64,000 bases of DNA from Alphaproteobacteria bacterium (GTDB lineage Bacteria > Pseudomonadota > Alphaproteobacteria > SP197). Shown in pieces: positions 6,060 to 44,373 of the stretch. The position numbers and the translations under genes are program-made. The notes under the pieces are model-generated. The model did not search any database. It saw nothing but the letters and a program-made list of their open reading frames with translations, and was not told the origin of the DNA. Numbering within the stretch: the stretch's first letter is position 1; each line of letters starts with the position of its first letter. The DNA lies in the NCBI GenBank assembly GCA_965200215.1, contig OZ241369.1, positions 1,027,787-1,091,786 on the forward strand. The letters are read 5' to 3'.

Positions 6060-6314
6060 GGGGTAGTGGATAGTGGATAGTGGCCAGTAGCCAGTGGTCG
6101 GTGGCCAGTGGGAGCGGGTGGTGGAGAGGGTGCCCGGCGGTGGGGGGAGTGCGTTGACGGGCCTACGGCCCGTTTGCCGGCGGGACGCCGGCGCTCCCAG
6201 GGGGCGGGACGCCTGGGGGTGGTGGCAAACGGTGCCTGGCCGTTTTCGAACCTAGGCGCTACCGCAAAGATCCAGCGCCACCCGCTCTCACCATCCACTA
6301 ACCACTAGCCACTA
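6060..6314. repeat. composite GC-rich repeat element (heptamer arrays + core + GGCAAACGG...TTCGAACC terminal module), interrupted by IS
   Basis: Motifs as elsewhere. The heptamer array continues at 7165-7200 on the other side of the IS. Confidence 0.7.
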
Positions 6315-7162
6315 GGCTCAGGACCCATAAACGGTCTTGAGTATTGTTGTGAGAAGTGGTTCAAGCTCTTCCAGATATAGAGGAGGCTATCATGTCTGAC
6401 CACCACTTCTGGTTATCGGATGCCCAGTTCGCCCGCATCCAGCCGCTGTTGCCCAACAAGGTGCGCGGTGTGCCCCGGGTCGATGACCGGCGCGTCATCT
6501 CGGGCATCATCCACGTCATTCGCAACGGGCTGAGGTGGCGTGACGCGCCGCCTGAATACGGTCCTCACAAGACCCTCTACAACCGCTTCGTGCGCTGGAG
6601 CAGGGCTGGCGTATTCGGACGCATCTTCGAGGCTCTGGCTGCCGACAGCCGGGCGTCGGGGACGGTGATGATCGACGCCACCTACCTGAAGGCTCACCGG
6701 ACTGCGGCCAGCCTGCTCAAAAAGGGGCTTTTCCGCGATGTATCGGGCGTAGCCGAGGCGGCTTGAACTCGAAGCTGCACGCGGTTTGCGACGGCGATGG
6801 CAAGCCCTTGATCCTGCTGCTGACCGAGGGGCAGGCCAGCGACTACCGGGGTGCCGAGGCCATCTTGCCGGCAGTGCCGGACGCCGATGTCCTGATCGCC
6901 GACAAGGGCTATGACAGCGACCGTTTCCGCCAAGCCCTGGCCGAACGGCGCATCGAGACATGCATCCCCGGACGGGCGAACCGCAAGAGGCCGGTAGAAT
7001 ATGACCCAAAGCTATACCAGCGGCGAAACCTCATCGAACGGATGTTCGGAAGGCTCAAGGACTGGAGGCGCATCGCCACACGATACGACCGATGCGCGCA
7101 CACCTTCTTTAGCGCTATCTGCATCGCCGCCACCGTCATCTTCTGGTTATGAGTCCTGAGCC
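6315..7162 (+). mobile_element. IS5-family insertion sequence (IS427-group-like), about 848 bp, imperfect terminal IRs GGCTCAGGACCCATAAACGG / GGCTCAGGACTCATAACCAG (rc), flanked by TA duplication, inserted into a heptamer array
   Basis: Terminal inverted repeats found by eye. Two overlapping transposase ORFs. Flanks ...CCACTA|IS|TAGCCACTGG. Confidence 0.8.
6392..7152 (+). CDS. IS5-family transposase, orfA (6392..6766) and orfB (to 7152) joined by a programmed -1 frameshift near CTC-AAA-AAG (about 6716-6724)
   Basis: ORF track (6356..6766 and 6763..7152). orfB frame is -1 relative to orfA and open back to the A-run. AGGAGG RBS directly before ATG 6392. DDE_Tnp_1-type sequence in orfB. Confidence 0.8.
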
Positions 7163-17362: not shown

Positions 17363-17374
17363 GGGTGGTGGTTA

Positions 17375-17625
17375 GTGGATAGTGGGCGGTGGTCGGTGGC
17401 TAGTGGCCGGTGGCCGGTGGCTAGTGGTTAGTGGGAGCGGGTGGTGGCGGTGGTGCCTGGCGGTGGGCTTGTGGTGCGTTGACGGGCCTTCGGCCCGTTT
17501 GCCGGCGGGACGCCGGCGCTCCCAGGGGGCGGGACGCTCGGCCGGTGCTTGGGGGGTGGCGGGTGGCTGATGGTGGTGCCTGGCGGTGGGGGCGTTGGTG
17601 GTGCCGGGGGGTGGGGCGCTGAAAA
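17375..17625. repeat. composite GC-rich repeat element
   Basis: Motifs. Confidence 0.7.
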
Positions 17626-19629: not shown

Positions 19630-22600
19630 ATGAGTGGACGATTTTTCGAGCGCCCGATCCTGAACTCGCCCTATGAGCGTCCGCAGCGCTACTGGAAGCT
19701 GGACGAGCACGGCCAGCCCAGCGACCTGGTCGTGCCTTGCCGCCGGGAGGTCGATTTCATCACCCCGATCCCCCAACCCAGGAAGCGCAGGGGCGGCAGG
19801 GGGCAGCCGACGCTGGCCCTGGAAAACGAGGCGGCGCGGCGGCTGTCCAGCGAAGGGCAGCGATACGATCTGGCCACCGCCATCAACGCCATCCGCCAGC
19901 GGGTGGACCGCTGGCGGGCGCTGCCGGAGGCGCAATGGCGGGTGACGCCGGAAACCGCCCGTCTGCTCCGCCACTGGCGTGGCCATCGCTTCGCCGATTT
20001 CCGGCCCTTCTTCTGCCAGGTCGAGGCGGTGGAGACCGCAATCTGGCTGACCGAGGTCGCGCCGGCCATCGGCGGTACCGGGCGGGTGTTTCTCGACCAT
20101 CTGGCGACGGTCAACGACGAGGCCAATCCCGGCCTCGCCCGGCTGGCCCTGAAGCTGGCCACCGGGGCCGGCAAGACCACGGTGATGGCGATGCTGATCG
20201 CCTGGCAGACGGTCAACGCGGTGCGCCACCCGGGCAGCCGGCGCTTCACGCGCGGTTTTCTGGTGACGACGCCCGGCATCACCATCCGCGACCGGTTGCG
20301 CGTGCTCCAGCCCAACGACCCCGACAGCTACTATCGCAGCCGCGAACTGGTGCCCGCCGACATGCTGGCCGATCTGGAGCGGGCGAAGATCGTCATCACC
20401 AACTTCCACGCCTTCGGGCGGCGCGAGACGATGACGGTCTCCAAGGGCGGGCGGGCCCTGCTCCAGGGCCGCGGCGGGGCGCTGCCGTCGCTGGAGAGCG
20501 AAGGGCAGATGCTGCGGCGCGTCATGCCGGAACTGATGGGCATGAAGGGCGTCATGGCGCTGAACGACGAAGCCCATCACTGCTATCGGGAAAAGCCGGG
20601 CGAGGCGGACGAGGGCGAGCTGGCCGGCGACGAGCGCCGGGAAGCCGAAGACAACCGCGAGGCGGCCAGGCTCTGGATCTCCGGCCTGGAAGCGGTGGGG
20701 CGCAAGCTGGGGCTGGCCCGCGTCGTCGACCTTTCGGCGACGCCGTTCTTCCTGCGCGGTTCCGGCTATGCCGAAGGGACGCTGTTTCCCTGGACGGTGA
20801 GCGATTTCTCGCTGATGGACGCCATCGAATGCGGCATCGTCAAGCTGCCGCGGGTGCCGGTGGCCGACAACGACCCAAGCGCCGACGTCCCCAAATTCCG
20901 CAATCTGTGGGAGCATGTCGGCAAGCGGATGCCGAAGAAGGGCGCCGCCGGGGCGGGAAGCCTCGATCCCCTGAAGATCCCCGTCGAGCTGCAGACGGCG
21001 CTGGAAGCCCTCTATGGGCATTACGAGAGGACCTTCGAGCTGTGGCAGCAGGCCGGCATCGACGTGCCGCCCTGTTTCATCGTCGTGTGCAACAACACCG
21101 CCACCTCGAAGCTGCTGTTCGACTACATCGCCGGCTTCGAGCGCCGCCAGGGCGACGGCTCCACCGCGCCGGTGCCCGGGCGCCTGTCCCTGTTCCGCAA
21201 TTGGGACGAGAACGGCGTGCGCCTGGGGCGGCCCCGCACCGTCCTCATCGACAGCCGCCAGCTGGAGTCCGGCGAGGCCCTGGATCCGCGCTTCCGCGCC
21301 CTGGCCGCCGGCGAGATCGAACGCTTCCGCCGCGAGATCGTCGAACGCACCGGCGACCGCCGCCAGGCCGACAACCTTTCCGACCAGGAGCTGCTGCGCG
21401 AGGTTCTCAACACCGTCGGCAAGGCGGGGCGGCTGGGCGGCGACATTCGCTGCGTGGTCTCCGTCTCCATGCTGACCGAGGGCTGGGACGCCAACACCGT
21501 CACCCACATCCTGGGCGTGCGCGCCTTCGGGACGCAGCTTCTGTGCGAGCAGGTGGTGGGCCGCGCCCTGCGCCGCCATTGCTACGAGCTCAACGAAGAC
21601 GGCCTCTTCGACGCCGAATATGCCGACGTGTTCGGCATCCCCTTCGACTTCACGGCCAGGCCGGTGGCGGTGGCCCCGCAACCGCCGCGCAAGGTGGTGC
21701 AGGTGAAGGCCATCGCCGAGCGCGCCAGGCTGGAGATCCGCTTCCCGCGCGTCGCCGGCTACCGGGTGGAACTGCCCGAAGAACGCCTGGAAGCCCGTTT
21801 CGACGCCGATTCCACCCTGGTGCTGACGCCCGAATGTGTCGGCCCCTCCGTCACCCACAACGAGGGCATCGTCGGCGAAGGCGTGGACCTGCACATCAAG
21901 CACCTCGACGGCGTGCGCCGGGCCACCCTGCTCTTCCATCTCGCCAAGTATCTGCTGGAGACGAAATATCACGACGCCGACGAAGCGCCCAAGCAGCACC
22001 TGTTCGGCCAGCTGAAGTCGATCGCCGGCCAGTGGCTGGACCGCCATCTGGTCTGCAAAGGCGGCACCCGCCAGGCGCAGCTTCTCTACCGGCAGCTGGC
22101 CGACTTGGCCTGCGAGCGCATCGCGCGGGCCATCACCGTCCGCTATGCCGACCAGCGCCCGGTGACGGCGGTGCTCGACCCCTACAACCCGGAAGGCTCC
22201 ACCGCCTGGGTCCATTTCGCCACCTCAAAGGCCACCTGGCGCACCCATCCCGCCCGCTGCCACATCGACCACGTGGTCTGCGACAGCAATTGGGAGGCGG
22301 AGTTCTGCCGCGTCGCCGAGGGGCATCCGGCCGTCCTCGCCTATGCCAAGAACCAGGGCCTGGGACTGGAGATCCCCTGGAGCCAGGGGGCGGAGCCGCG
22401 CATCTATCTGCCCGATTTCGTGCTGCGCCTGGACGACGGGCGCGGAGCCGACGATCCGCTGCATCTGATCGTCGAGATCAAGGGCTGGCAAGGCGAGGAG
22501 GCCAAGGACAAGAAGGCGACGGTGGAGACCTACTGGATCCCCGGCGTCAACCGGCTGGCCCGCTTCGGGCGCTGGGCCTTCGCCGAGTTTCGCGACGTCT

Positions 22601-22665
22601 GGGAGATCGAGGACGGCTTTGCGCGGCTGGTGGCGGGGCTGCGGGGTGGGGGCGTTAGTGGATAG
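19630..22665 (+). CDS. type III restriction enzyme Res-like subunit (SF2 helicase with DEAH box LNDEAHHC + C-terminal endonuclease region)
   Basis: ATG 19630 within ORF 19423..22665. Walker A LATGAGKT. DEAH motif. 1011 aa. C-terminal stop inside a heptamer array. Confidence 0.75.
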   Translation: MSGRFFERPILNSPYERPQRYWKLDEHGQPSDLVVPCRREVDFITPIPQPRKRRGGRGQPTLALENEAARRLSSEGQRYDLATAINAIRQRVDRWRALPEAQWRVTPETARLLRHWRGHRFADFRPFFCQVEAVETAIWLTEVAPAIGGTGRVFLDHLATVNDEANPGLARLALKLATGAGKTTVMAMLIAWQTVNAVRHPGSRRFTRGFLVTTPGITIRDRLRVLQPNDPDSYYRSRELVPADMLADLERAKIVITNFHAFGRRETMTVSKGGRALLQGRGGALPSLESEGQMLRRVMPELMGMKGVMALNDEAHHCYREKPGEADEGELAGDERREAEDNREAARLWISGLEAVGRKLGLARVVDLSATPFFLRGSGYAEGTLFPWTVSDFSLMDAIECGIVKLPRVPVADNDPSADVPKFRNLWEHVGKRMPKKGAAGAGSLDPLKIPVELQTALEALYGHYERTFELWQQAGIDVPPCFIVVCNNTATSKLLFDYIAGFERRQGDGSTAPVPGRLSLFRNWDENGVRLGRPRTVLIDSRQLESGEALDPRFRALAAGEIERFRREIVERTGDRRQADNLSDQELLREVLNTVGKAGRLGGDIRCVVSVSMLTEGWDANTVTHILGVRAFGTQLLCEQVVGRALRRHCYELNEDGLFDAEYADVFGIPFDFTARPVAVAPQPPRKVVQVKAIAERARLEIRFPRVAGYRVELPEERLEARFDADSTLVLTPECVGPSVTHNEGIVGEGVDLHIKHLDGVRRATLLFHLAKYLLETKYHDADEAPKQHLFGQLKSIAGQWLDRHLVCKGGTRQAQLLYRQLADLACERIARAITVRYADQRPVTAVLDPYNPEGSTAWVHFATSKATWRTHPARCHIDHVVCDSNWEAEFCRVAEGHPAVLAYAKNQGLGLEIPWSQGAEPRIYLPDFVLRLDDGRGADDPLHLIVEIKGWQGEEAKDKKATVETYWIPGVNRLARFGRWAFAEFRDVWEIEDGFARLVAGLRGGGVSG

Positions 22666-22870
22666 TGGATAGTGGATAGTGGATAGTGGTTAGTGGCCGG
22701 TGGCCAGTAGCCAGTGGTCGGTGGGAGTGGGTGGCTGGTGGTGGTGCCTGGCGGCTGGGGGGTGGTGCGTTGACGGGCCTTTGGGCCGGTAGCCGGTGGC
22801 CGGTGGTCGGTGAGAGTGGGTGGCTGGCGGTGGTGCCTGGGGGTGGCTGACGGCGGCTGCCTGTTTTCAC
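22655..22870. repeat. composite GC-rich repeat element (heptamer arrays GGATAGT/GGTTAGT...)
   Basis: Motifs. Confidence 0.7.
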
Positions 22871-22984
22871 GCCGGGCGCTACCCTCTCGAGCGTTTCTTG
22901 ACGTATGCTGGAGCCCTGTCGGACGATGATTGCGATTTTGTCCGCTCTCATGGGCATGGACAGGGATTCGGGGAGGTTCTCTGG

Positions 22985-23206
22985 ATGTCCGATCCCGTCG
23001 TATTCGACACGCTCGCCTATGCGCGCCGCCTGAAAGAGGCGGGGGTCGACGACAAGCAGGCCGAAGCTCATGCGGAGGCGGCCCGCGACTCCATGATGGG
23101 GAGCGTCGCCACCAGAAGCGACCTTCTCAAGATGGAGAACAGCTTGACCTGGAAACTGCTTGGCGTCGCGGGCCTGCTGTTTGCCGCGCTCAAGCTTGTT
23201 CCTTGA
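22985..23206 (+). CDS. DUF1640-family coiled-coil/TM protein (third copy in window)
   Basis: ATG 22985 (MSDPVVFDTLAYARRLKEAG...TRSDL...WKLLGVAGLLFAALKLVP). Confidence 0.65.
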   Translation: MSDPVVFDTLAYARRLKEAGVDDKQAEAHAEAARDSMMGSVATRSDLLKMENSLTWKLLGVAGLLFAALKLVP

Positions 23207-23408
23207 GTGTCCCTGGATAGTGGCCGGTGGCCGGTGGCCAGTGGTCGGTGGGAGTGGGTGGCTGGCGGTGGTGCCTGGCGGCTGGGGAGTGGGGCGTTGA
23301 CGGGCCTTTGGGCCGTTTGCCGGTGGGGTGGCGGTGCTCCCAGGGGGCGGTGGCACCGGCGGTGCCTGCCTGTTTTCATGCCGGGGCGCTGCCCGATGAA
23401 AACACGTG

Positions 23409-23437
23409 TTGACGACGCCTGCCGCGCGTGGGACAAT
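23409..23437 (+). promoter_or_regulatory. putative sigma70-type promoter (TTGACG-17-GACAAT) in an AT-richer stretch upstream of the hypothetical/protease genes
   Basis: By eye; about 190 nt upstream of ATG 23627. Confidence 0.3.
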
Positions 23438-23626
23438 GCGATGTGTTGGCATCCGCCCCAAGCGAGTGGCCCGCTTACCTGCCGGGGGCGTGCGCCGAGA
23501 GCTTGGGGCTTCGTTTGTTCCTTTTTGCAACCCATATCCGGAGGGATCTTTCCTGAAGAGATCGCACCCCACCTGGGCCAAACGACATTTGACACCATGG
23601 AACAACCGCAAACGGGGAGGACGGAC

Positions 23627-23908
23627 ATGAGACCACAGAAGACGGCGGCAGCCGACAGCCAGCAGCAGGAGGTCGACCGCAATTACAAGGCCTTCAAGAC
23701 GATGCTTCCCGAACTCATCAAGAGCGACGCCGGCAGAACGGCCCTGATGCGCGACGGAAAGGTCGTGGCCTGCTTCGATACGGATCGCGACGCCATCCAG
23801 GCCGGCCGCACGATGTTCGAGGATCAGCGCTTCTCGATTCAGGAAGTCACCAATCGCGCCGTCGATCTTGGGTATTTCTCCCGTGTCGGCGTTCTCGGGG
23901 CGGTTTGA
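23627..23908 (+). CDS. hypothetical protein (93 aa)
   Basis: ORF with GGGGAGGA RBS 7 nt upstream; no recognisable family. Confidence 0.45.
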   Translation: MRPQKTAAADSQQQEVDRNYKAFKTMLPELIKSDAGRTALMRDGKVVACFDTDRDAIQAGRTMFEDQRFSIQEVTNRAVDLGYFSRVGVLGAV

Positions 23909-24332
23909 CTGGAACGCCGGCCTGATCTGGCAGGTCGGCTTCGTTTCTGGAGCCACCCCAGTGGCGGCTGCGGGCACTCCCGGCGCGCTTCATGTCTGCC
24001 CAGCACTCGTCGACACCGGTGCGACACGGACTTGTATTGCAAAATCCGTTGTCGAAGCCCTTGGCCTGCACTCCATCGGAAGAACAAGCATGGACACTGC
24101 TGGAGGAGCGGCCAATGCCAATATCTACGACACGCATATCGTTCTATTGACGGATCATGCGCAGAACCCAGACGGGACCGTCGATGTACAAGCTCAATTA
24201 TTTCATAATATCAGGGTGCTGGAATTCGTCGCCGATGGGAATACGCCCTATCAGGCCTTGATCGGGCGTGACATTCTGCGCATCGGTATGCTCACGATGT
24301 CGCGGGATGGCTATTTTTCCTTTGCGTTTTGA
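23868..24332 (+). CDS. retropepsin-like (clan AA) aspartic protease family protein; start uncertain (TTG 23868 or GTG about 23883, or frameshift fusion with the upstream ORF)
   Basis: Motifs ALVDTGATRTCI (D-T/S-G-A active site) and ALIGRDIL flap/helix region. Confidence 0.55.
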   Translation: MGISPVSAFSGRFDWNAGLIWQVGFVSGATPVAAAGTPGALHVCPALVDTGATRTCIAKSVVEALGLHSIGRTSMDTAGGAANANIYDTHIVLLTDHAQNPDGTVDVQAQLFHNIRVLEFVADGNTPYQALIGRDILRIGMLTMSRDGYFSFAF

Positions 24333-24389
24333 GCTACGACACGAACAGGGGACTCCCGCTCCTGAGCGCCGTCGAGCCAGGCTGAGCCT

Positions 24390-25208
24390 ATGGCGAAGAA
24401 GCCCGGTGGAAAGGGCGAGAGCATCGCAACCCTCGATCCCGACGCGCTCCAGAAGCTCCTGTGCGAGCGTCTGTGCGAGGACGTAAGGGTCGAACGCCGT
24501 CCCGACGGCGCGCTGATGCTGCGCGCCCATTTCCGCTTCCCGGACGGCGATGGCTACCCCATCCATCTTTGCCAGGCGCCCGCCGGCGGGCTGCGGCTGT
24601 CGGATCGCGGCCACACCCTCATGCATCTGAGCTATGAGCACGACGTCGACATGTTCATGGACGGCACCCGCGCCATGCTGCTCGAACGCATCCTGACGGA
24701 GAGCGGTTTGCAGTGGGAGGGCGGCGCCTTGTGCCTGGACACCGCCCCGGAACGGCTGCCGGAGGCGCTGTTCCGCTTCGGCCAGGCGCTCACCAGGGTA
24801 TACGACCTGACCTTCCTCTCCCGTTCCAATGTCGGTTCCACCTTTTACGACGATCTCGCCGACCTTCTCCGCCAGCTGGTGGACGAGGACAAGATGCAGC
24901 GCGATTACCGGCCGGACGTGCCCAATGCCGACGCCTATCCGGTGGATTACCGCATCGAGGGCAAGGACGGCGTGCCGCTGTTCCTCTACGGCGTGCCCAA
25001 TCGCGACAAGGCGCGGCTAACGACCGTCATGTTGTCGCACTTCCATCGCCACGCGCTCGATTTCGAGTCCATCGTCGTGTTCGAGGACCAGGCCGAGATG
25101 CCCAGGATGGACCTGGCCCGCCTTTCGGACGTCGGCGGGGAGATGGTCGCATCGCTGGAATCGCGGGAGGATCTCGCACGCAAGCTGCGGTGGCGGATTG
25201 CGGCGTGA
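24390..25208 (+). CDS. hypothetical protein (DUF1828/DUF1829-like two-domain protein; assignment tentative)
   Basis: ORF track; codon usage typical of the host GC. Confidence 0.5.
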   Translation: MAKKPGGKGESIATLDPDALQKLLCERLCEDVRVERRPDGALMLRAHFRFPDGDGYPIHLCQAPAGGLRLSDRGHTLMHLSYEHDVDMFMDGTRAMLLERILTESGLQWEGGALCLDTAPERLPEALFRFGQALTRVYDLTFLSRSNVGSTFYDDLADLLRQLVDEDKMQRDYRPDVPNADAYPVDYRIEGKDGVPLFLYGVPNRDKARLTTVMLSHFHRHALDFESIVVFEDQAEMPRMDLARLSDVGGEMVASLESREDLARKLRWRIAA

Positions 25209-25214
25209 TGGCGC

Positions 25215-25600
25215 GGTGGGGGGTAGTGGCTGGTGGGTAGTGGATAGTGGATAGTGGATAGTGGTTAGTGGCCGGTAGCCAGTGGCCGGTGGTCGGTGGG
25301 AGTGGGTGGCTGGTGGCGGTGCCTAGCGGCTGGGGGGTGGTGTGTCGACGGGGCTTTGGGCCGTTTGCCGGTGGGGTGGCGGCGCTCGGGGGAATTTCGT
25401 GCGCGGGCGGGCCGGACGGCCCGCCGGGGGGCGGGACGCTGGCGGCGGTGCCTGGGGGTGGTGGCTGGCGGTGGCTGCCTGTTTTCATGCCGGGGCGCTG
25501 CCCCTCTCCTCCAGGTGCGCCCGTTCCCACTGGCCACTGGCCACCGGCCACCGGCTACTGGCCACCGGCCACTAACCACTAACCACTAGCCACTGGCCCC
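25215..25600. repeat. composite GC-rich repeat element (two heptamer arrays in inverted orientation flanking core)
   Basis: Motifs. Confidence 0.7.
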
Positions 25601-25665
25601 GCCCGGCGTATCGACGGTTTGGCTTTTCCGGGCCACACTGCGGGTGTGGCGTGGGGGTGGATTTC

Positions 25666-28600
25666 ATGGTGGGGAAGCGCAGGGGGGCGAAGAGCAAGGG
25701 GGTTGCCGCCTTTACCCATGAGGGGGCGCGGCGGGCGAACATTCCCACCGCCGAGCTCGACGCGGTGATGGCCGAGGGCGAGAAGGCGGCGGTTCGCATC
25801 GCCTATGAGCGCCGCAACCGAGATCTGGACCCGCAGCTGGTCTGGCGCGGCAAGGACGAGCAGGACCAGGCCGATCTGGTGGTCCAGGCGCCGCCGCTCT
25901 ACATCCAGGAGAAGGTGCACCCCAAGGCGCTGATCGACGACCTGCTGCGCCAGTCGAAGCGGCGGCGCGACGAGGCGGCCGAAGAGGCCCCGGACCTGTT
26001 CGCCGATTTCAACGGCCTGCCCGAAGGCGCCGCCCGAACCGAGTTCTACCGCCACGACGCCAACTGGTCGAACCGCATGATCCTGGGCGACGCGCTGCGG
26101 GTGATGGCCTCGCTGGCCGAGCGCGAGGGCCTGCGCGGCAAGGTGCAGGCGATCTATATCGACCCGCCCTACGGCATCCGCTTCAACTCCAACTTCCAGT
26201 GGTCCACCGGCAGCCGCGACGTGAAGGACGGCAAGGCGGCGCATATCACCCGCGAGCCGGAGCAGGTGAAGGCCTTTCGCGACACCTGGCGCGACGGCAT
26301 CCATTCCTATCTCTCCTATCTGCGCGACCGGCTGACGGTGGCCCGCGAGCTGCTGGCCCCGAGCGGCTCGGTATTCGTGCAGATCGGCGACGAGAACGTC
26401 CACCGGGTGCGGGCGGTGATGGACGAGGTGTTCGGGGAGGGGAATTTCGTCAACCAGATCAACTGCCGCACGAATAGCGGAACCACAAGAGGCGACTCAC
26501 TCAAGCGAACGAACGACTACCTGCTTTGGTACGCAAAGAATATCGAAAGCAAGAAGTTTCGGCGATTGCTGGTTGAGCGAGACGTCGAAACAAACATGTA
26601 TAGTCAGCTCCTTTTTGAGGATTTGTCAGTTCGTCCCATGACTCAGGAAGAGAAGAAAAAGCCAACGCTAATTCCCGACACGGCTAGAGCATATAGGAAA
26701 TTACCACTCCACTCGATGAACGCCGGAGACCATACACCGCGGAAAGCATTCGGAAGGTATTGGAAAATACCATCTAACCGCAGTTGGCGCCATTCCCTGG
26801 CCGGTTTCGACCGGCTCTTGCGGTCATCTCGAATACAAGCAGACCTGAGTGCTCTTAGCAGCCGCTATTTCCACAGCGACTATATCGCCTCCGAGCTAAC
26901 CGAGACTTGGGTGGATACAGGCCCCGAAGTGGACAAGTCCTACGTAGTCCAGACGTCCGAGCGGATTGTCCAACGCTGCCTGCTGATGACCACCGACCCC
27001 GGCGACCTGGTGCTGGACCCGACCTGCGGTTCCGGCACCACCGCCTATGTCGCCGAGCAATGGGGCCGGCGCTGGATCACCATCGACACCTCGCGGGTGG
27101 CGCTGGCGCTGGCCCGGGCGCGGATCATGGGCGCGCGCTATCCCTGGTATATCCTGGCCGACAGCCCGGAAGGGCAGAGGAAGGAAGCGGAACTGGACCG
27201 GCGCGCGCCTTCCGAGGCGGCGACCGGCGGCGATGTCCGCCAGGGCTTCGTCTATCGGCGGGTGCCGCATGTGACGCTGAAATCGATCGCCAACAATGCG
27301 GAGATCGATGCGATCTGGGAGAGGTGGGAGGGGGTGTTGGGGGCGTTGCGGAGTCAACTATCAGTTGCCAGTGGCCAGTCGCCAGTGGCCAGTGACCGGC
27401 AACCGGCGACTGGCGACCGGCCACCGGCCACCGGCAACCGGCCACTGGAGGAATGGCAGATTCCCCGCGAGGCTGGCGCCGGCTGGCCCGACGAGGCGAA
27501 GGCGGCGCATGCCGAGTTCTGGCAGGCGCGCATCGGACGGCAGAAGGAGATCGACGCCTCCATCGCCGCCAGGGCCGACAGCGAATATCTCTACGACAAG
27601 CCCTATGAGGACAGGGAGCGCATCCGCGTCGCCGGCCCGTTCACGGTGGAAAGCCTGGCGCCGCACCGCACCGTGGCCAGCGAGGGGGAAGGCGCCGCCG
27701 AAGACGGCCACGGATACCACGGCGGCGGGGCCTTCCCGGAACGCGATTTCACCGCCCTGGTGCTGGAGCAGCTGCGGGCTGCCGGCGTGCAGCAGGCCCG
27801 CAAGGACGACCGCATCGACATCGCCTCCATCGAGGGCTGGCCGGGGCGTTCCATCTGCGCCACGGGGCGCTTTCGCGAAGGCGGGGCCGAACGCCGGGCC
27901 GGCATCCTGATCGGCCCCGAATTCGGCACCGTTTCCAAGCCCGACCTGACCGCCGCCGCCCGCGAGGCGGCCGAGGCCGGTTTCGACGCGCTGATCGCCT
28001 GCGCCTTCAGCTACGACGCCCATGCCAGCGAGTTCGACCGCCTGGGCCGGGTGCCGGTGCTGAAGGCGCGCATGAACGCCGATCTGCACATGGCCGGCGA
28101 GCTGAAGAACACCGGCAAGGGGAACCTGTTCGTGGTGTTCGGGGAGCCTGATATAGAAGTGGCCGGTGGCCGGTGGCTAGTGGCCAGAAACGGGAAGATG
28201 ATCGCGCGTTATGAGCACGTCAAAGAGCTATCAGGACTTGGAAGTCTGGAAGAAATCAATGGAGCTGGCGGAAGAGGTCTATCGGCTCTCTGCCGGGTGG
28301 CCGGCGGAGGAGCGATTCGGTCTGACCGGTCAGATGCGCCGCGCGACGGTGTCCATCCCGGCGAACATCGCGGAGGGAGCGGAGCGGCACGGAACGCGGG
28401 AGTTTCTCCACTTTCTGGGGATAGCGAGCGGCTCCCTGGCGGAAACGGAGACCCTTCTGATTCTGGCCCGGAGGCTGGGGATGTCTCCGCCCGAACGGAT
28501 TTCACCGCTTCTGGAACGAGCCGGGGAGATCGGACGGATGCTCAACGGCCTCAAGCGATCGCTGCGATCGAGGCATTGAACGACGGCGACTTCCCGCTTT

Positions 28601-28944
28601 CACTGACCACCGGCCACTGGCTACAGGTCGCCATTCGCGGTATCGACATTTATCGCCCCGACACGGGTCAGATTCACAGCGACGGTCCCGACGGCATCGC
28701 GCTGTGGTTCGTGGACAGCGACTACAACGAGGAGAGCTTTTTCGTTCGCCAGGCCTATTTCCTGGGCGCCAACGACCCCTACAAGGCGCTGAAGACGACG
28801 CTGAAGGCCGAGATCGACCCGCAGGCCTGGGCGAGCCTGAACAGCGACACCTCCCGCCCCTTCCCCGCCCCCGCCTCGGGCCGCATCGCCGTCAAGGTCA
28901 TCAACCACCTGGGCGACGAGGCGATGAAGGTGTTCCGGGTGTGA
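25666..28944 (+). CDS. type III-like Mod DNA methyltransferase (beta-class N6A/N4C MTase: motif IV IYIDPPYG precedes motif I DPTCGSGTT), mosaic ORF with AT-richer TRD (about 26460-26900) and two repeat-associated insertions; integrity uncertain
   Basis: ORF track 25651..28944 (ATG 25666 alternative). MTase motifs. Conserved C-terminal module ...RIAVKVINHLGDEAMKVFRV. Confidence 0.65.
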   Translation: MVGKRRGAKSKGVAAFTHEGARRANIPTAELDAVMAEGEKAAVRIAYERRNRDLDPQLVWRGKDEQDQADLVVQAPPLYIQEKVHPKALIDDLLRQSKRRRDEAAEEAPDLFADFNGLPEGAARTEFYRHDANWSNRMILGDALRVMASLAEREGLRGKVQAIYIDPPYGIRFNSNFQWSTGSRDVKDGKAAHITREPEQVKAFRDTWRDGIHSYLSYLRDRLTVARELLAPSGSVFVQIGDENVHRVRAVMDEVFGEGNFVNQINCRTNSGTTRGDSLKRTNDYLLWYAKNIESKKFRRLLVERDVETNMYSQLLFEDLSVRPMTQEEKKKPTLIPDTARAYRKLPLHSMNAGDHTPRKAFGRYWKIPSNRSWRHSLAGFDRLLRSSRIQADLSALSSRYFHSDYIASELTETWVDTGPEVDKSYVVQTSERIVQRCLLMTTDPGDLVLDPTCGSGTTAYVAEQWGRRWITIDTSRVALALARARIMGARYPWYILADSPEGQRKEAELDRRAPSEAATGGDVRQGFVYRRVPHVTLKSIANNAEIDAIWERWEGVLGALRSQLSVASGQSPVASDRQPATGDRPPATGNRPLEEWQIPREAGAGWPDEAKAAHAEFWQARIGRQKEIDASIAARADSEYLYDKPYEDRERIRVAGPFTVESLAPHRTVASEGEGAAEDGHGYHGGGAFPERDFTALVLEQLRAAGVQQARKDDRIDIASIEGWPGRSICATGRFREGGAERRAGILIGPEFGTVSKPDLTAAAREAAEAGFDALIACAFSYDAHASEFDRLGRVPVLKARMNADLHMAGELKNTGKGNLFVVFGEPDIEVAGGRWLVARNGKMIARYEHVKELSGLGSLEEINGAGGRGLSALCRVAGGGAIRSDRSDAPRDGVHPGEHRGGSGAARNAGVSPLSGDSERLPGGNGDPSDSGPEAGDVSARTDFTASGTSRGDRTDAQRPQAIAAIEALNDGDFPLSLTTGHWLQVAIRGIDIYRPDTGQIHSDGPDGIALWFVDSDYNEESFFVRQAYFLGANDPYKALKTTLKAEIDPQAWASLNSDTSRPFPAPASGRIAVKVINHLGDEAMKVFRV
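27355..27450. repeat. palindromic heptamer-repeat array inserted in-frame inside the Mod coding region
   Basis: GCCAGTG/GCCAGTC units followed by their inverse (CCGGCAA/CCGGCGA...); translates as VASGQSPVASDRQPATGDRPPATGNRP. Confidence 0.75.
28211..28579 (+). CDS. four-helix-bundle protein (23S rRNA intervening-sequence protein family-like), nested inside the Mod ORF in a different frame
   Basis: ORF track. Sequence MSTSKSYQDLEVWKKSMELAEEVYRLS...IPANIAEG...ETETLLILARRLG matches my recollection of that family. Flanked by heptamer repeats at about 28160-28195 and 28595-28625. Confidence 0.6.
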   Translation: MSTSKSYQDLEVWKKSMELAEEVYRLSAGWPAEERFGLTGQMRRATVSIPANIAEGAERHGTREFLHFLGIASGSLAETETLLILARRLGMSPPERISPLLERAGEIGRMLNGLKRSLRSRH

Positions 28945-28948
28945 GGCC

Positions 28949-30079
28949 ATGGCGGGGCTGGACTGGATCACCATCGAGGGTTTCAAGAGCATCGCCTCCA
29001 TCGAGAGGCTGCCGCTGCGCCCGATCAACGTGCTGATCGGCGCCAACGGTTCGGGGAAGTCGAATTTCGTCGAGGCCTTTTCGTTTCTGCACGCGATACG
29101 GTCCAGGAAGCATCACGACCATGTCATGCGCGCGGGGGGCGGCGACAGGATTCTTCATTTCGGCGCGCGAACGACGCCCCAGTTGAAGCTTCACATCTCT
29201 TTCGAAGAACAAGTGTATCAATATGAGATAGCACTGGCGCCGGACGATGGAGATCACCTCTTTCCGTCGGGGGAATGTACCTATTTCTGGAACAAACATG
29301 TGTATGAACCTTACATCGAGCCCCTTATGGGAAGCCATGGCCATGCGGGCATCAGCCGCCCGTATTTCAAGCCAACAACACCCACAGCGAATTATGTCCA
29401 GAAGCACCTGGACAGCTGGCGCCTGTATCACTTCCCGGATACCGGCGCCGCATCGCCGCTGAAGAAGACGGGCGACGTAAACGACAACCGCTTTCTGCGG
29501 CCCGACGGCTCCAACCTGGCGGCGTTCCTGTATCGGCTGCGCGAGACGGAGCAGGACCGCTACCGGCTGATACGGGACACGGTGCGCCTGGCGGCGCCGT
29601 TCTTCGAGGATTTCGCGCTCGAACCCCTGGTCCTGCACGAGGACAAGATCCCCCTGGAGTGGAAGCACCGGGGGAAAGACGCCTATTTCGACGCCTCCTC
29701 CCTTTCGGACGGCACCCTGCGCTTCATGGCGCTGGCGACGCTGCTGCTTCAGCCGCAGACGCTGCGGCCCTCGGCCATCCTCCTGGACGAGCCGGAACTG
29801 GGCCTGCACCCCTATGCCATCGCGCTTCTCGCCTCGCTGATCGGGCAGGCTTCGGCCGAGACCCAGGTGATTCTGGCCACCCAGTCCTCGCTGCTGCTGG
29901 ACCATTTCAGCCCCGAAGACGTGCTGGTGGCGGAGCGGGCGCGCGGGGCCACCACGCTGACCCGGCTGAAGCCCGAAGAGCTGAAGGAATGGCTGGACGA
30001 CTACAGCCTGGGCCAGCTGTGGGAGAAGAACGAGTTCGGCGGGCGCCCCTCACCCGAAGAGGCGGGCGAGAGGGGATGA
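28949..30079 (+). CDS. AAA_21/ABC-type ATPase (OLD/abortive-infection-like ATPase; Walker A GANGSGKSN, Walker B LLDEPELGLHP)
   Basis: ORF track; start immediately after the Mod stop. Confidence 0.7.
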   Translation: MAGLDWITIEGFKSIASIERLPLRPINVLIGANGSGKSNFVEAFSFLHAIRSRKHHDHVMRAGGGDRILHFGARTTPQLKLHISFEEQVYQYEIALAPDDGDHLFPSGECTYFWNKHVYEPYIEPLMGSHGHAGISRPYFKPTTPTANYVQKHLDSWRLYHFPDTGAASPLKKTGDVNDNRFLRPDGSNLAAFLYRLRETEQDRYRLIRDTVRLAAPFFEDFALEPLVLHEDKIPLEWKHRGKDAYFDASSLSDGTLRFMALATLLLQPQTLRPSAILLDEPELGLHPYAIALLASLIGQASAETQVILATQSSLLLDHFSPEDVLVAERARGATTLTRLKPEELKEWLDDYSLGQLWEKNEFGGRPSPEEAGERG

Positions 30080-30321
30080 CGCGCCTGCTCGTGCATGTGG
30101 AAGGCCAGACGGAGGAGAGTTTCGTCGACCGGATTCTGGCGCCTCACCTTTACCGGCGCGGCTTTTCTTCGATCGGCGCCCGCCTGCTCGGCAACGCCCG
30201 CCAGCGCGAGCGGCGCGGCGGCATCAAGCCCTGGCACGCGGCCCGCAGGGACATCCTGGGCCATCTGCGGCAGGACCGCGAGGCCGTGGCCAGTGGCCGG
30301 TGGCTAGTGGTTAGTGGCTAG
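30076..30321 (+). pseudogene. DUF4276-like gene remnant (N-terminal about 80 aa: MTRLLVHVEGQTEESFVDRILAPHLY...), truncated by insertion of a repeat element
   Basis: ATGA start/stop overlap with the ATPase. Family members are about 200 aa (from memory). ORF ends inside a long heptamer array. Confidence 0.5.
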
Positions 30322-30560
30322 TGGTTAGTGGCTAGTGGTTAGTGGCTAGTGGTTAGTGGCTAGTGGTTAGTGGTCGGTGGGCGGTGGCCAGTAGCCGGTG
30401 GCTAGTGGTTAGTGGTTAGTGGGAGCGGGTGGTGGGGGTGGTGCCTGGCGGTGGGGTGTGGTGCGTTGACGGGCCTGCGGCCCGTTTGCCGGCGGGACGC
30501 CGGCGCTCCCAGGGGGGCGCCGGGTGGCGGGGGCGCGGTAAGGGCGGCAACCATGGCGAG
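30290..30560. repeat. composite GC-rich repeat element with long heptamer array ((GGCTAGT GGTTAGT) x7)
   Basis: Direct inspection. Confidence 0.8.
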
Positions 30561-30640
30561 GAGGCGATGCGAGGTGTTTCGGGTGTGACGGCGACTCCAA
30601 CATCCAGTATCGTATGCGACACGGCTTGGGGGGATTGAGC

Positions 30641-32116
30641 ATGAGCGGACCTGCCAGCGATTCTTCGCCCAATCGGTCGCCGAAGGCTCCCGATGTGCGC
30701 ATCTCCGTCAGCAATTTCGGCCCCATCGCGAAGGGAAGCATCGACCTTCGGCCCATGAACATCTTCGTCGGGCCGAGCAACACGGGCAAGACCTATTTTG
30801 CCACCTTGATCTATGCAATTCATCGAATCACGAGGGGTTTTCCGCGACTCCCTCCAACTATGAGCTACATTTTCAACGATGTTGAAAATTTTGCGGGGGT
30901 GATTTACCAGATTGTTAAGAATTTTGACTCTGGACAAAGAAATCATCCTGGATCCGGGCGCGACCGGATTCAGCCCACGCTTATCGATCACAATCCCGTG
31001 GCCCATGACTGGGAAATTGAATTAGAGCGTTGCTTCGATGTCGGTGCTCTTTCCGAACTGATTCAGACTCAAAGCGAATCAACCGGAGCAAAGATCGATC
31101 TGTCAATCGAGGATAAAAAGAGCCTCCTTTGGAATTTTCATGTAAAGGTGCCGACTCACGGTATTCGGGGCGATGGAAAGATAGGGAATTTCAAAATTGA
31201 GCACATATTTCCTGATTTCGAAAAGAAAGCTGAAAAAGTATTCTCGGCCAATTCAATAATAGAGGCTATAACCAACCTACAGAAACTGTTCGAATTCGAG
31301 AAATCAAACGAATCCGACGTGTACTACCTGCCATCCGACAGAGGCGGTCTCATACATAGCCACCCCGCTATCGCAATATCTTTGCTTAAACGTGCAACTC
31401 GACTGAACACCAAGCGCCATTCGGAGATCCCCACTTTCTCCGGGGTTATGACCGATTTCATGCGGCATATCATCGCCTATGAGGATTCCGAACTGCGTGA
31501 CGAAAAGCCGGAGAACGAGTTGGCGAAAATCGCGAGCGAATTGGAAAGCCGGGTGCTCGATGGAAGGATCGAGACTGTCCGGGCAGCGTCCCGCGGCTAT
31601 CCTGACGTGGTGTATCGGCCGGAGGGAATGGAAAAGGGCATGCGGTTGAATCGCGCCTCGTCCATGGTATCCGAACTCGCGCCGGTGGTCCTCTTCATCC
31701 GTGGCCATGTTCGCGTCGGCGACACCGTAATCATCGACGAGCCGGAAGCCCATCTTCATCCCGCCGCGCAGACCGAGATGGCGACGGCGCTGGCGCGTCT
31801 GGTGCGGGCCGGCGTTCGGGTGGTGATGACCACGCACAGCGAATGGCTGCTCCAGGAGATCGGCAACCTGATGCGGGAGGGGGAGTTGGGGGAAGGGAAT
31901 GGCGACTCTCCGAGTCTTCATCCTCGCGACGTCGGCGCCTGGCTATTCAAGAAGAAAGGATCGGAGGGCTCCAACGTGGAGGAGATTCGATTCGACCGCA
32001 TCGAAGGCATCGGGCCGCCGGATTACGAAGACGTCGCCGAAAGCCTCTATAACCGCTCGGCAGAGCTGCAGAACCGCCTCGCAGAGACGGACGGCGGCGG
32101 CGAGTCGGGGGCATGA
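30641..32116 (+). CDS. AAA-type ATPase (AAA_15/21-like; Walker A VGPSNTGKTYF, Walker B VIIDEPEAHLHP), AT-richer gene
   Basis: ATG 30641 (GGGGGA RBS) within ORF 30614..32116. Confidence 0.7.
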   Translation: MSGPASDSSPNRSPKAPDVRISVSNFGPIAKGSIDLRPMNIFVGPSNTGKTYFATLIYAIHRITRGFPRLPPTMSYIFNDVENFAGVIYQIVKNFDSGQRNHPGSGRDRIQPTLIDHNPVAHDWEIELERCFDVGALSELIQTQSESTGAKIDLSIEDKKSLLWNFHVKVPTHGIRGDGKIGNFKIEHIFPDFEKKAEKVFSANSIIEAITNLQKLFEFEKSNESDVYYLPSDRGGLIHSHPAIAISLLKRATRLNTKRHSEIPTFSGVMTDFMRHIIAYEDSELRDEKPENELAKIASELESRVLDGRIETVRAASRGYPDVVYRPEGMEKGMRLNRASSMVSELAPVVLFIRGHVRVGDTVIIDEPEAHLHPAAQTEMATALARLVRAGVRVVMTTHSEWLLQEIGNLMREGELGEGNGDSPSLHPRDVGAWLFKKKGSEGSNVEEIRFDRIEGIGPPDYEDVAESLYNRSAELQNRLAETDGGGESGA

Positions 32117-44108: not shown

Positions 44109-44373
44109 CGGGCGCGGCGCCCGCGGCGGCACTCGTCCCGGCGCGGCGCCAGGCTGGCGCCGACGACGCGGGGGCGGGGCTTCGACACGCCGGCCTTTGC
44201 GCGGCACCTGGAAGCGGCCGGCGTGGAACGGGCGCAAGCCGAGGCGCGTGCGGGCGCAGTGCGCGATGCGGTGGCGGCGGCGACCGGGGCGGCGTTGGCG
44301 GCCGGCGTCGGCGAAATGCGGGCGGCGCTGGCGGCGCCATAGCCTTTCGCCCGCCCCCGTCGCCTGCGGGCGC

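Follow-up and report, generated by a model that had tools for sequence, protein, structure and literature searches.

A retropepsin-like protease gene with an overlapping small partner gene between res and mod of a BPTD_3080-family restriction-modification operon

In bacteria, retropepsin-like proteases are uncommon and little understood. The enzymes characterized so far act with partner proteins, as in the case of RimB of Pseudomonas (PMC11957791), and secreted retropepsin-like enzymes of Pseudomonas are also known (PMC12239564). RimB and the secreted enzymes were the only bacterial examples that our literature search returned, and neither has a partner of the kind described here. This paper concerns a gene for a retropepsin-like protease in a 64,000-nucleotide stretch of an alphaproteobacterial genome (contig OZ241369.1, positions 1,027,787 to 1,091,786 of the forward strand), which will be called the window and from which all unprefixed coordinates are counted. 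The protease gene overlaps a gene for a 93-amino acid (aa) protein, here the small protein, and the two lie together with a DUF1640/CCDC90-like gene and a DUF1828-domain gene between the res and mod genes of a restriction-modification (R-M) operon. A first-pass annotation of the window took these four open reading frames (ORFs) to be one cassette. All four are present on the plus strand where it placed them, but the interval is very probably made up of three independently acquired units. The first would be the DUF1640/CCDC90-like gene, with no conserved link to the others; the second a two-gene operon of small protein and protease, translationally coupled through a 26-nt overlap; and the third the DUF1828 gene, a probable remnant of an R-M-accessory pair that it forms elsewhere with a 158-aa protein, p158.

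The second of these units resembles a type II toxin-antitoxin system in several respects. It is a two-gene, co-directional, overlapping operon of small proteins that is conserved across genomes, and it is patchy and mobile, occurring both in housekeeping regions and in defense islands, where it is co-resident with PIN-like (a weak match), MNT, and DUF2283 genes. As in such systems, it is the downstream gene that decays, the upstream one being retained, and the product of the latter combines a folded core with a conserved disordered tail. Unlike in those systems, the upstream protein lacks RHH, HTH, and AbrB domains and is more conserved than the putative toxin. A second point of comparison is the PrrC anticodon nuclease, which sits inside the EcoprrI type Ic locus. 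Here too unrelated effector genes are lodged among the genes for R-M subunits, and the cargo of the junction varies by genome, but the pair is found mostly away from R-M systems. Finally, as in retroviral Gag-Pro, the last nucleotides of one ORF are shared, in a different frame, with a protease ORF that follows it; the shift would however be +1 rather than -1, the protease has a conserved start of its own, and no fused homologs were found.

The genes of the res/mod interval and the protease pair

The reading of the interval as a single anti-phage cassette, inserted as a block, bounded by repeats, and functioning as four cooperating genes, is largely refuted, and we regard it as extremely unlikely. 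It has in its favor that the four genes are co-directional between res and mod and that the DUF1828 protein matches a candidate defense component in PADLOC. The four families were however found together at no other locus, whether among the genomic contexts retrieved through the protease, the loci of the DUF1828 scan, or the metagenome loci described below. The small-protein/protease pair and DUF1828 are each far commoner without the other, and the units are separately distributed; the DUF1640-like gene was in none of the related loci and operons compared, being seen at this locus only, and is set off by a repeat with a terminator-like end. Repeat elements do stand at both ends of the interval, as had been claimed, but they mark no cassette boundary: a third copy lies inside and separates the DUF1640-like gene from the small gene, and the family is intergenic and genome-wide, with 26 arrays in the window. 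Composition differs strongly between the genes as well. The GC content at third codon positions (GC3) is 0.61 in the protease gene, 0.90 in res, and 0.85 in the DUF1828 gene, and the AT-richer stretch of the first-pass annotation is confirmed as a fall in GC to 0.52-0.61 over 23450-24350, where the small and protease genes lie, from about 0.70 on either side (~71% across the window).

By every sequence criterion tested, the 149-aa product of the protease gene is a complete retropepsin-like unit and a member of clan AA. It scores above the Pfam gathering thresholds of PF13975 (32.7 versus 28.2), PF13650 (32.7 versus 24.3), and PF00077 (22.5 versus 20.7). The D-T-G-A motif on which the first identification relied is confirmed at residues 44-47 (codons 24012-24023), and the second catalytic-site elements are present as a TAGG flap and an ALIGRDIL segment, with G128-R-D at codons 24264-24272. 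Residues L42-V43-D44-T45-G46-A47 are invariant in 28 family members, as are T50, G128, and D130, and R129 is nearly so. In profile alignments LVDTGA falls on LLDTGA of HIV-1 protease and TAGG on the HIV flap GIGG, while ALIGRDIL aligns with IIGRDLL of the tethered-dimer HIV-1 protease entry 3kt2; the family profile aligns to Ddi1 as well as to HIV-1 protease. The protein is not a member of the curated bacterial-archaeal clan AA subfamilies TIGR02281 (17.0 versus 57.95) and TIGR03698 (17.5 versus 57.35). A word-index search retrieved 31 homologs, and nearly all of the full-length ones are 141-150 aa long. No signal peptide or membrane segment is apparent by inspection, so the enzyme is probably cytoplasmic. 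It shares with retropepsins and their bacterial relatives the single-lobe form, two hydrophobic residues followed by D-T-G-A, a glycine-rich flap, and a C-terminal G-R-D. It differs from these in its length (149 aa), in having a longer hairpin at the N-terminus and an insert that follows the flap, and in its setting: an overlapping small gene of an uncharacterized family always precedes it, and there is no rimK-like or secretion context.

The linkage between the two genes is close. In all genomic contexts retrieved through the protease, a gene of 86-94 aa lies upstream with an overlap of exactly 26 nt. Scanning of metagenomes with a small-protein profile gave 69 loci (35-56% identity), 66 of them with enough downstream sequence, and in 61 of those 66 the small gene is overlapped or adjoined at its 3' end by a retropepsin-like ORF, with the D-[TS]-G motif present in 57. 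This protease is thus ~92% linked to a small-protein family that comprises more than 1400 clusters, has no Pfam model, and is the subject of no literature that we found. The neighborhoods are varied. Individual loci are referred to by number below. The pair stands among housekeeping genes in L003, L004, L007, L094, and L022-24 (in the last between ftsK and lolA) and near a type I R-M system in L008, and it lies within the BPTD_3080-type R-M family, just downstream of res, in the window, L001/L002, L021, L095, and L096. The promoter-like match of the first-pass annotation, TTGACG-17-GACAAT, is confirmed as the sole sigma70-like match in 22600-25700, where 0.3 would be expected, and lies 190 nt upstream of the small gene. 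No conserved promoter or operator was found upstream of the pair across loci; the upstream DNA differs between them, and therefore the mobile unit is essentially the two ORFs. The pair is an autonomous two-gene unit belonging to a large and apparently undescribed family. The first-pass suggestion of a selfish insertion or accessory module is fair for this pair, but not for the four genes as a block.

A PrrC-like coupling to the R-M system could be argued for, in which the pair is a guard or second-line module and the protease is unleashed once a phage has put restriction out of action. The pair is found just downstream of res in five independent operons, as listed above; among the copies closest to that of the window more lie inside the R-M family than outside it; and the neighborhood, with its AAA_21 and DUF4276 genes, is a defense island. 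The broader distribution makes this reading improbable. Most copies lie outside R-M systems, among them the L003, L004, L007, L022, and L094 copies, and neither res, DUF1828, mod, nor p158 was near the pair in any of the 69 metagenome loci, within the available flanks (at least 8 kb in 23 loci). The copies embedded in operons do not form a distinct clade, and R-M operons without the pair (L011 and L012) are nested among the carriers; the pair thus either joined this R-M family long ago and was later lost from some operons, or has become associated with it repeatedly. In L096, moreover, a protease pseudogene stands beside R-M genes that are full-length by tblastn.

The first-pass annotation also raised the possibility that the small and protease ORFs form a frameshift fusion, and gave their overlap as about 40 nt. 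That figure holds, at 41 nt, if the protease begins at TTG 23868 (23868-24332, 154 aa). However, an ATG or GTG stands at an identical position in all close homologs of the junction alignment, and the window gene therefore starts at GTG 23883, giving the 26-nt overlap. Production of a Gag-Pro-like fusion by programmed +1 frameshifting, for instance at a conserved GUU-UGA-C, would be in keeping with the +1 frame of the protease relative to the small ORF in 56 of the 61 loci, and with a conserved stop context, G-TTT-GA-C, at the end of the small ORF that resembles the RF2 (prfB) shift site CUU-UGA-C. This is nonetheless very unlikely, and not only on account of the shared start. Over protease residues 2-8 (x-A-F-S-G-x-F) the protease frame is conserved, whereas these nucleotides give variable residues when read in the small-ORF frame, and the stretch is therefore translated from the upstream protease start. 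In L095 the two ORFs are 15 nt apart and the protease, with its own ATG, is intact, and in 5 of the 61 loci the protease is in another relative frame. The two are separate genes in homologs, with no small-protease fusion among the best 150 of 1441 representatives, and the longer small-family matches that were inspected consist of tandem small domains (P0301-P0303) or carry unrelated extensions. Separate, translationally coupled initiation of the protease is the simplest reading of these alignments.

Possible roles of the small protein and the protease

The small gene has a GGAGGA Shine-Dalgarno sequence ahead of its ATG. Homologs of its product number 135 by word-index search and 1441 clusters at 50% identity by profile search (E<=0.001), almost all of 80-120 aa. 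The protein has no match in Pfam, PDB sequences, PHROG, or PADLOC, no fold match, and no match in plasmid or phage collections; 2.9 million viral contigs gave only 2 matches. An AlphaFold2 model built from 58 sequences has a long N-terminal helix, a β-hairpin, a helix, and a strand, with residues 80-93 disordered, and it is in this disordered tail that conservation within the family is highest, in the motif D-L-G-[YF]-[FW]-S-[HR]. Since the tail is conserved and the active-site cleft is the only strongly conserved surface of the protease, the tail is suggested to bind in the cleft as a pseudo-substrate or substrate. A different idea, in which the tail mimics the C-terminal dimer-interface strand of the protease (GYFS occurs in both window proteins), was rejected for want of co-variation: the tail stays D-L-G-[YF]-[FW]-S-H while the protease C-terminus shifts between clades from DGHFSFAF to R-x-G-x-C-x-L-x-F-G.

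Our tentative reading of the pair, held with a little less than even confidence, is that it is toxin-antitoxin-like. The aspartic protease, as a homodimer, would be the effector, and the small protein would restrain it, most likely with its tail D-L-G-[YF]-[FW]-S-H occupying the active-site cleft in the manner of a pseudo-substrate or a slow substrate. If the small protein were lost, the protease would be free to cut cellular or phage proteins. The division into units, the linkage counts, the start codon, and the protease signature come directly from the sequence comparisons, whereas protease toxicity, its inhibition by the small protein, and any coupling to restriction are inferred. The way in which the pair decays is what would be expected of a toxin and its antitoxin. 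The L096 operon, which is that of L001 in a variant strain, has a protease pseudogene (6276-6600) with frameshifts, an internal deletion, and a change of the catalytic D to G, while the small gene is intact and p158 is present. Four Sphingomonad-type contigs (L033, L036, L055, and L064) have lost the protease by deletion, such that the small gene is followed directly by lolA, and in one further contig of this type the protease is truncated. Variants of the catalytic motif, DTE, DTA, and DMG, occur in L051, L073, and L043, respectively. The small gene is thus tolerated by itself. Protease-only loci were not seen, all protease-anchored look-ups having the small gene, a sampling that is unfit for a fair count.

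Several observations weigh against a toxin-antitoxin-like role, or at least do not require it. Asymmetric decay also fits an independent function of the small protein, and such a function may further be indicated by the stable position between ftsK and lolA together with the retention of the small gene without the protease. Conservation is higher in the small protein than in the protease (~48% versus 28% identity between the window and L022), which is the opposite of what is usual for toxin and antitoxin and fits a substrate or adaptor role too. No DNA-binding domain is recognizable in the small protein by Pfam, PDB-sequence, or fold searches. The confidence of the small-protein model, from which the disordered tail is taken, is only medium (predicted local distance difference test, pLDDT, 69), and the five operon-embedded cases among close relatives may leave room for a functional link to restriction.

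Alternatively, the protease may be regulatory and non-toxic, with the small protein as its dedicated substrate, precursor, or adaptor. It would then trim the conserved C-terminal tail or be targeted by it, much as RimB acts together with its partners, and the two genes would form an ordinary regulatory operon that is mobile by chance. Beyond the conservation of the small protein, its stable ftsK-lolA position, and its survival after protease loss, this account is favored by the aromatic pair [YF][FW] of the tail, which would suit a retropepsin P1-P1' site, and by the occurrence of tandem small domains and of one homolog (P0444) with a candidate N-terminal XRE-type helix-turn-helix fusion, judged by eye. 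The partners of the characterized bacterial retropepsin-like enzymes also speak for it (PMC11957791). We consider it somewhat unlikely all the same, as it sits poorly with the patchy distribution of the pair over many unrelated neighborhoods, defense islands included, with a composition foreign to the host, with a slot that is common to toxin-antitoxin-type genes, and with the repeated decay of the protease.

The toxin-antitoxin-like reading can be carried further, to a new toxin-antitoxin or abortive-infection class in which a cytoplasmic HIV-protease-like effector is held by a tail-in-cleft inhibitor and, by lodging downstream of res, serves as a back-up to restriction. This wider proposal is doubtful. 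No retropepsin-like toxin, and no retropepsin partnered by an antitoxin, was found in the literature, and to our knowledge no retropepsin-like toxin exists among described systems. If the inhibitor, toxin-antitoxin, or defense role were true, the pair would bring new effector chemistry to bacterial conflict systems; it would be their first retropepsin-type effector and would make a natural protein inhibitor of a retropepsin available for study.

The R-M operon, the DUF1828 gene, and the DUF1640-like gene

On the matches of both its Res and its Mod, the host operon is a BPTD_3080-family type III-like R-M system. The res product scores 1285.9 bits against NCBIfam NF046055 (cut-off 800) and is 66-75% identical to the res products of L001, L009-L013, L017, L021, and L095; mod matches PADLOC MTase_III PDLC03632 with 1233 bits and PF01555 at 2.8e-32. 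In the basal gene order of plasmid relatives, mod lies within 2 nt of res (Pseudomonas avellanae), and a Gemmobacter plasmid relative has res, one small ORF, then mod. Because res and mod are adjacent on plasmids, the junction is empty in the basal form, and the genes found in the junction of the window were added later, in agreement with the insertion between res and mod that had been proposed. Related operons carry other cargo, namely a PIN match that is weak and sub-threshold in L021, MNT nucleotidyltransferases matching PDC-S09 (L001, L010), a DUF2283 gene preceded by a small ORF (L010, L095), a GIY-YIG gene (L009), and genes for 23S-rRNA-intervening-sequence proteins (IVP). On this comparison the res/mod junction is evidently a landing site for small selfish or accessory genes, intergenic junctions being permissive, and the small-protein/protease pair fits as one more such element. 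That small genes gather at the junction of a widely transferred R-M family is useful to know for defense-island annotation.

The identification of the last ORF of the interval as DUF1828 is upheld by PF08861 (2.5e-16, 60.1 bits versus a cut-off of 22), and the protein also matches PADLOC PDC-M24B (4.9e-13). It has 1756 homologs; the 120 listed are, besides one identical copy, 75-88% identical and mostly about 260 aa long. Scanning of 185,579 genomes, one per species, gave 12 loci in Nitrospirales, Alphaproteobacteria, Latescibacterota, Longimicrobiales, Pseudomonadales, and Chlorobiales; the plasmid collection gave no match. Where DUF1828 is at least 71% identical, the gene order is res - p158 - DUF1828 - mod. 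Here p158 is a conserved ORF of 157-161 aa immediately upstream of DUF1828, the product of which carries the histidine-rich motif Y-N-G-P-S-H-x-H...H-V-H-R and matches phrog_27326 but nothing in Pfam or PADLOC. It adjoins DUF1828 in every related locus with intact upstream sequence (L009-L018, L020, L021, L095, and L096) except L001/L002, which like the window have DUF1828 without p158. More distant p158+DUF1828 pairs stand beside type I HsdR/S/M genes in L018 and L020, and in L014 the pair is beside an Eco57I-type methylase and a XamI endonuclease (type II). By its neighborhoods, p158+DUF1828 is an accessory pair that accompanies R-M systems of types I and II as well as the present type III-like one, and the DUF1828 gene of the window is, on the same comparison, the surviving half of such a pair from which p158 has been lost. 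The occurrence of DUF1828 with an unnamed 158-aa protein beside three R-M classes is likewise of use in annotating defense islands.

A model of the DUF1828 protein (pLDDT 68) has two domains, an N-domain like YbjN and type III secretion system chaperones and a C-domain weakly like PD-(D/E)xK nucleases. The protein resembles the PADLOC candidate system PDC-M24 in that it matches component B and lies in a defense locus; the difference is that the regular neighbor of DUF1828 in relatives is p158. PDC-M24A is not among the matches listed for res, three mod segments, the small protein, the protease, the DUF1640-like protein, and p158, nor among the best 25 of the 51 matches of full-length mod. Our literature search on DUF1828 and PDC-M24 found nothing relevant to bacteria. 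In two loci (L021:8745-8972 and L095:6950-7078) a second, partial copy of the Mod N-terminus, about 50 aa long and 63-84% identical to the real one, stands just upstream of p158, between it and the protease, and looks like a recombination scar from the entry of p158-DUF1828 into the res/mod junction.

The first gene of the interval had been called DUF1640, but the likeness is a resemblance only: the 73-aa protein matches PF07798 with 21.3 bits (E 2.6e-4) against a gathering threshold of 33.5, over the first 41 of 175 profile positions. It also matches phrog_17872 (4.6e-7). Its N-terminal region is weakly similar to coiled-coil CCDC90-like proteins and is followed by a hydrophobic C-terminal tail. 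The gene, which is flanked by two repeat copies, has a GGGGAGG Shine-Dalgarno sequence 8 nt upstream and has paralogs in the window at 1464-1706 and 2659-2916 (34% identity), with a partial match at 44181-44267 (62%). The two paralogs reach 25.3 bits against PF07798, also under the cut-off. We treat this gene as an unrelated passenger from a small-protein family that is multi-copy in this genome.

Feature coordinates, repeats, and neighboring genes

Table 1. Coordinates of the features in and around the res/mod interval, with examples of p158 in related loci
Feature	Position	Strand	Remarks
res	19630-22665	+	BPTD_3080-family restriction endonuclease; start 19630 picked from homolog alignment
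Repeat element copy 1	22640-22885	+	Heptamer array (NNAGTGG)n, GGGCC hairpin core, and terminator-like tail
DUF1640/CCDC90-like gene, 73 aa	22985-23206	+	
Repeat element copy 2	23209-23394	+	Terminator-like hairpin and T-run at end
Sigma70-like promoter candidate	23409-23437	+	TTGACG-17-GACAAT with TG extension
Small protein gene, 93 aa	23627-23908	+	
Retropepsin-like clan AA aspartic protease gene, 149 aa	23883-24332	+	GTG start
DUF1828-domain gene, 272 aa	24390-25208	+	PF08861
Repeat element copy 3	25215-25600	+	Inverted heptamer arm 25527-25596
mod	25651-28944	+	Type III methyltransferase; in-frame repeat array and nested IVP gene
p158 examples	L009:9543-10016, L017:7291-7776, L021:8969-9445, L095:7102-7575		

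The repeats of the interval are part of a family made up of heptamer arrays (NNAGTGG) with a GGGCC hairpin core. The arrays sit between most genes in the first 37 kb of the window, for example at 17365-17434, 22655-22724, 25223-25299, and 30290-30422, and their strand bias is extreme, with 25 on the plus strand and 1 on the minus strand. Repeat-derived sequence is also found within the mod ORF, as an array at 28156-28183 and a weaker, lower-identity copy at 27353-27460.

The mod gene also has an IVP gene (PF05635, 7.7e-39) at 28211-28579, wholly within its ORF, and nested IVP genes occur at L009:14990-15355, L011:13352-13717, and L095:11829-12191. The IVP gene lies between the variable middle of Mod and its conserved C-terminal ~110 aa. 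In 4 of 4 loci, one of them in a Nitrospirales genome of ~50% GC, the mod frame has no stop within the insert, and each time IVP is read in the +1 frame with respect to mod. The gene looks like either a mobile cassette for which a permissive linker serves as an in-frame insertion site or a case of overprinting. Further upstream in mod, the segment 26450-26900 has a GC content of 0.50 and a GC3 of 0.58, compared with a GC3 of about 0.81 in the N-terminal part of the gene, and may be a swapped specificity region.

Downstream of mod, the gene at 28949-30079 encodes an AAA_21 ATPase that matches PADLOC HEC-01A (2.4e-132). It is followed at 30076-30321 by a DUF4276 gene cut by a repeat array, of which the first 53 of 192 profile positions remain, and at 30614-32116 by a second ATPase that resembles PD-T4-4_A/AriA. 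Judged by these matches, the region around the operon is a defense island.

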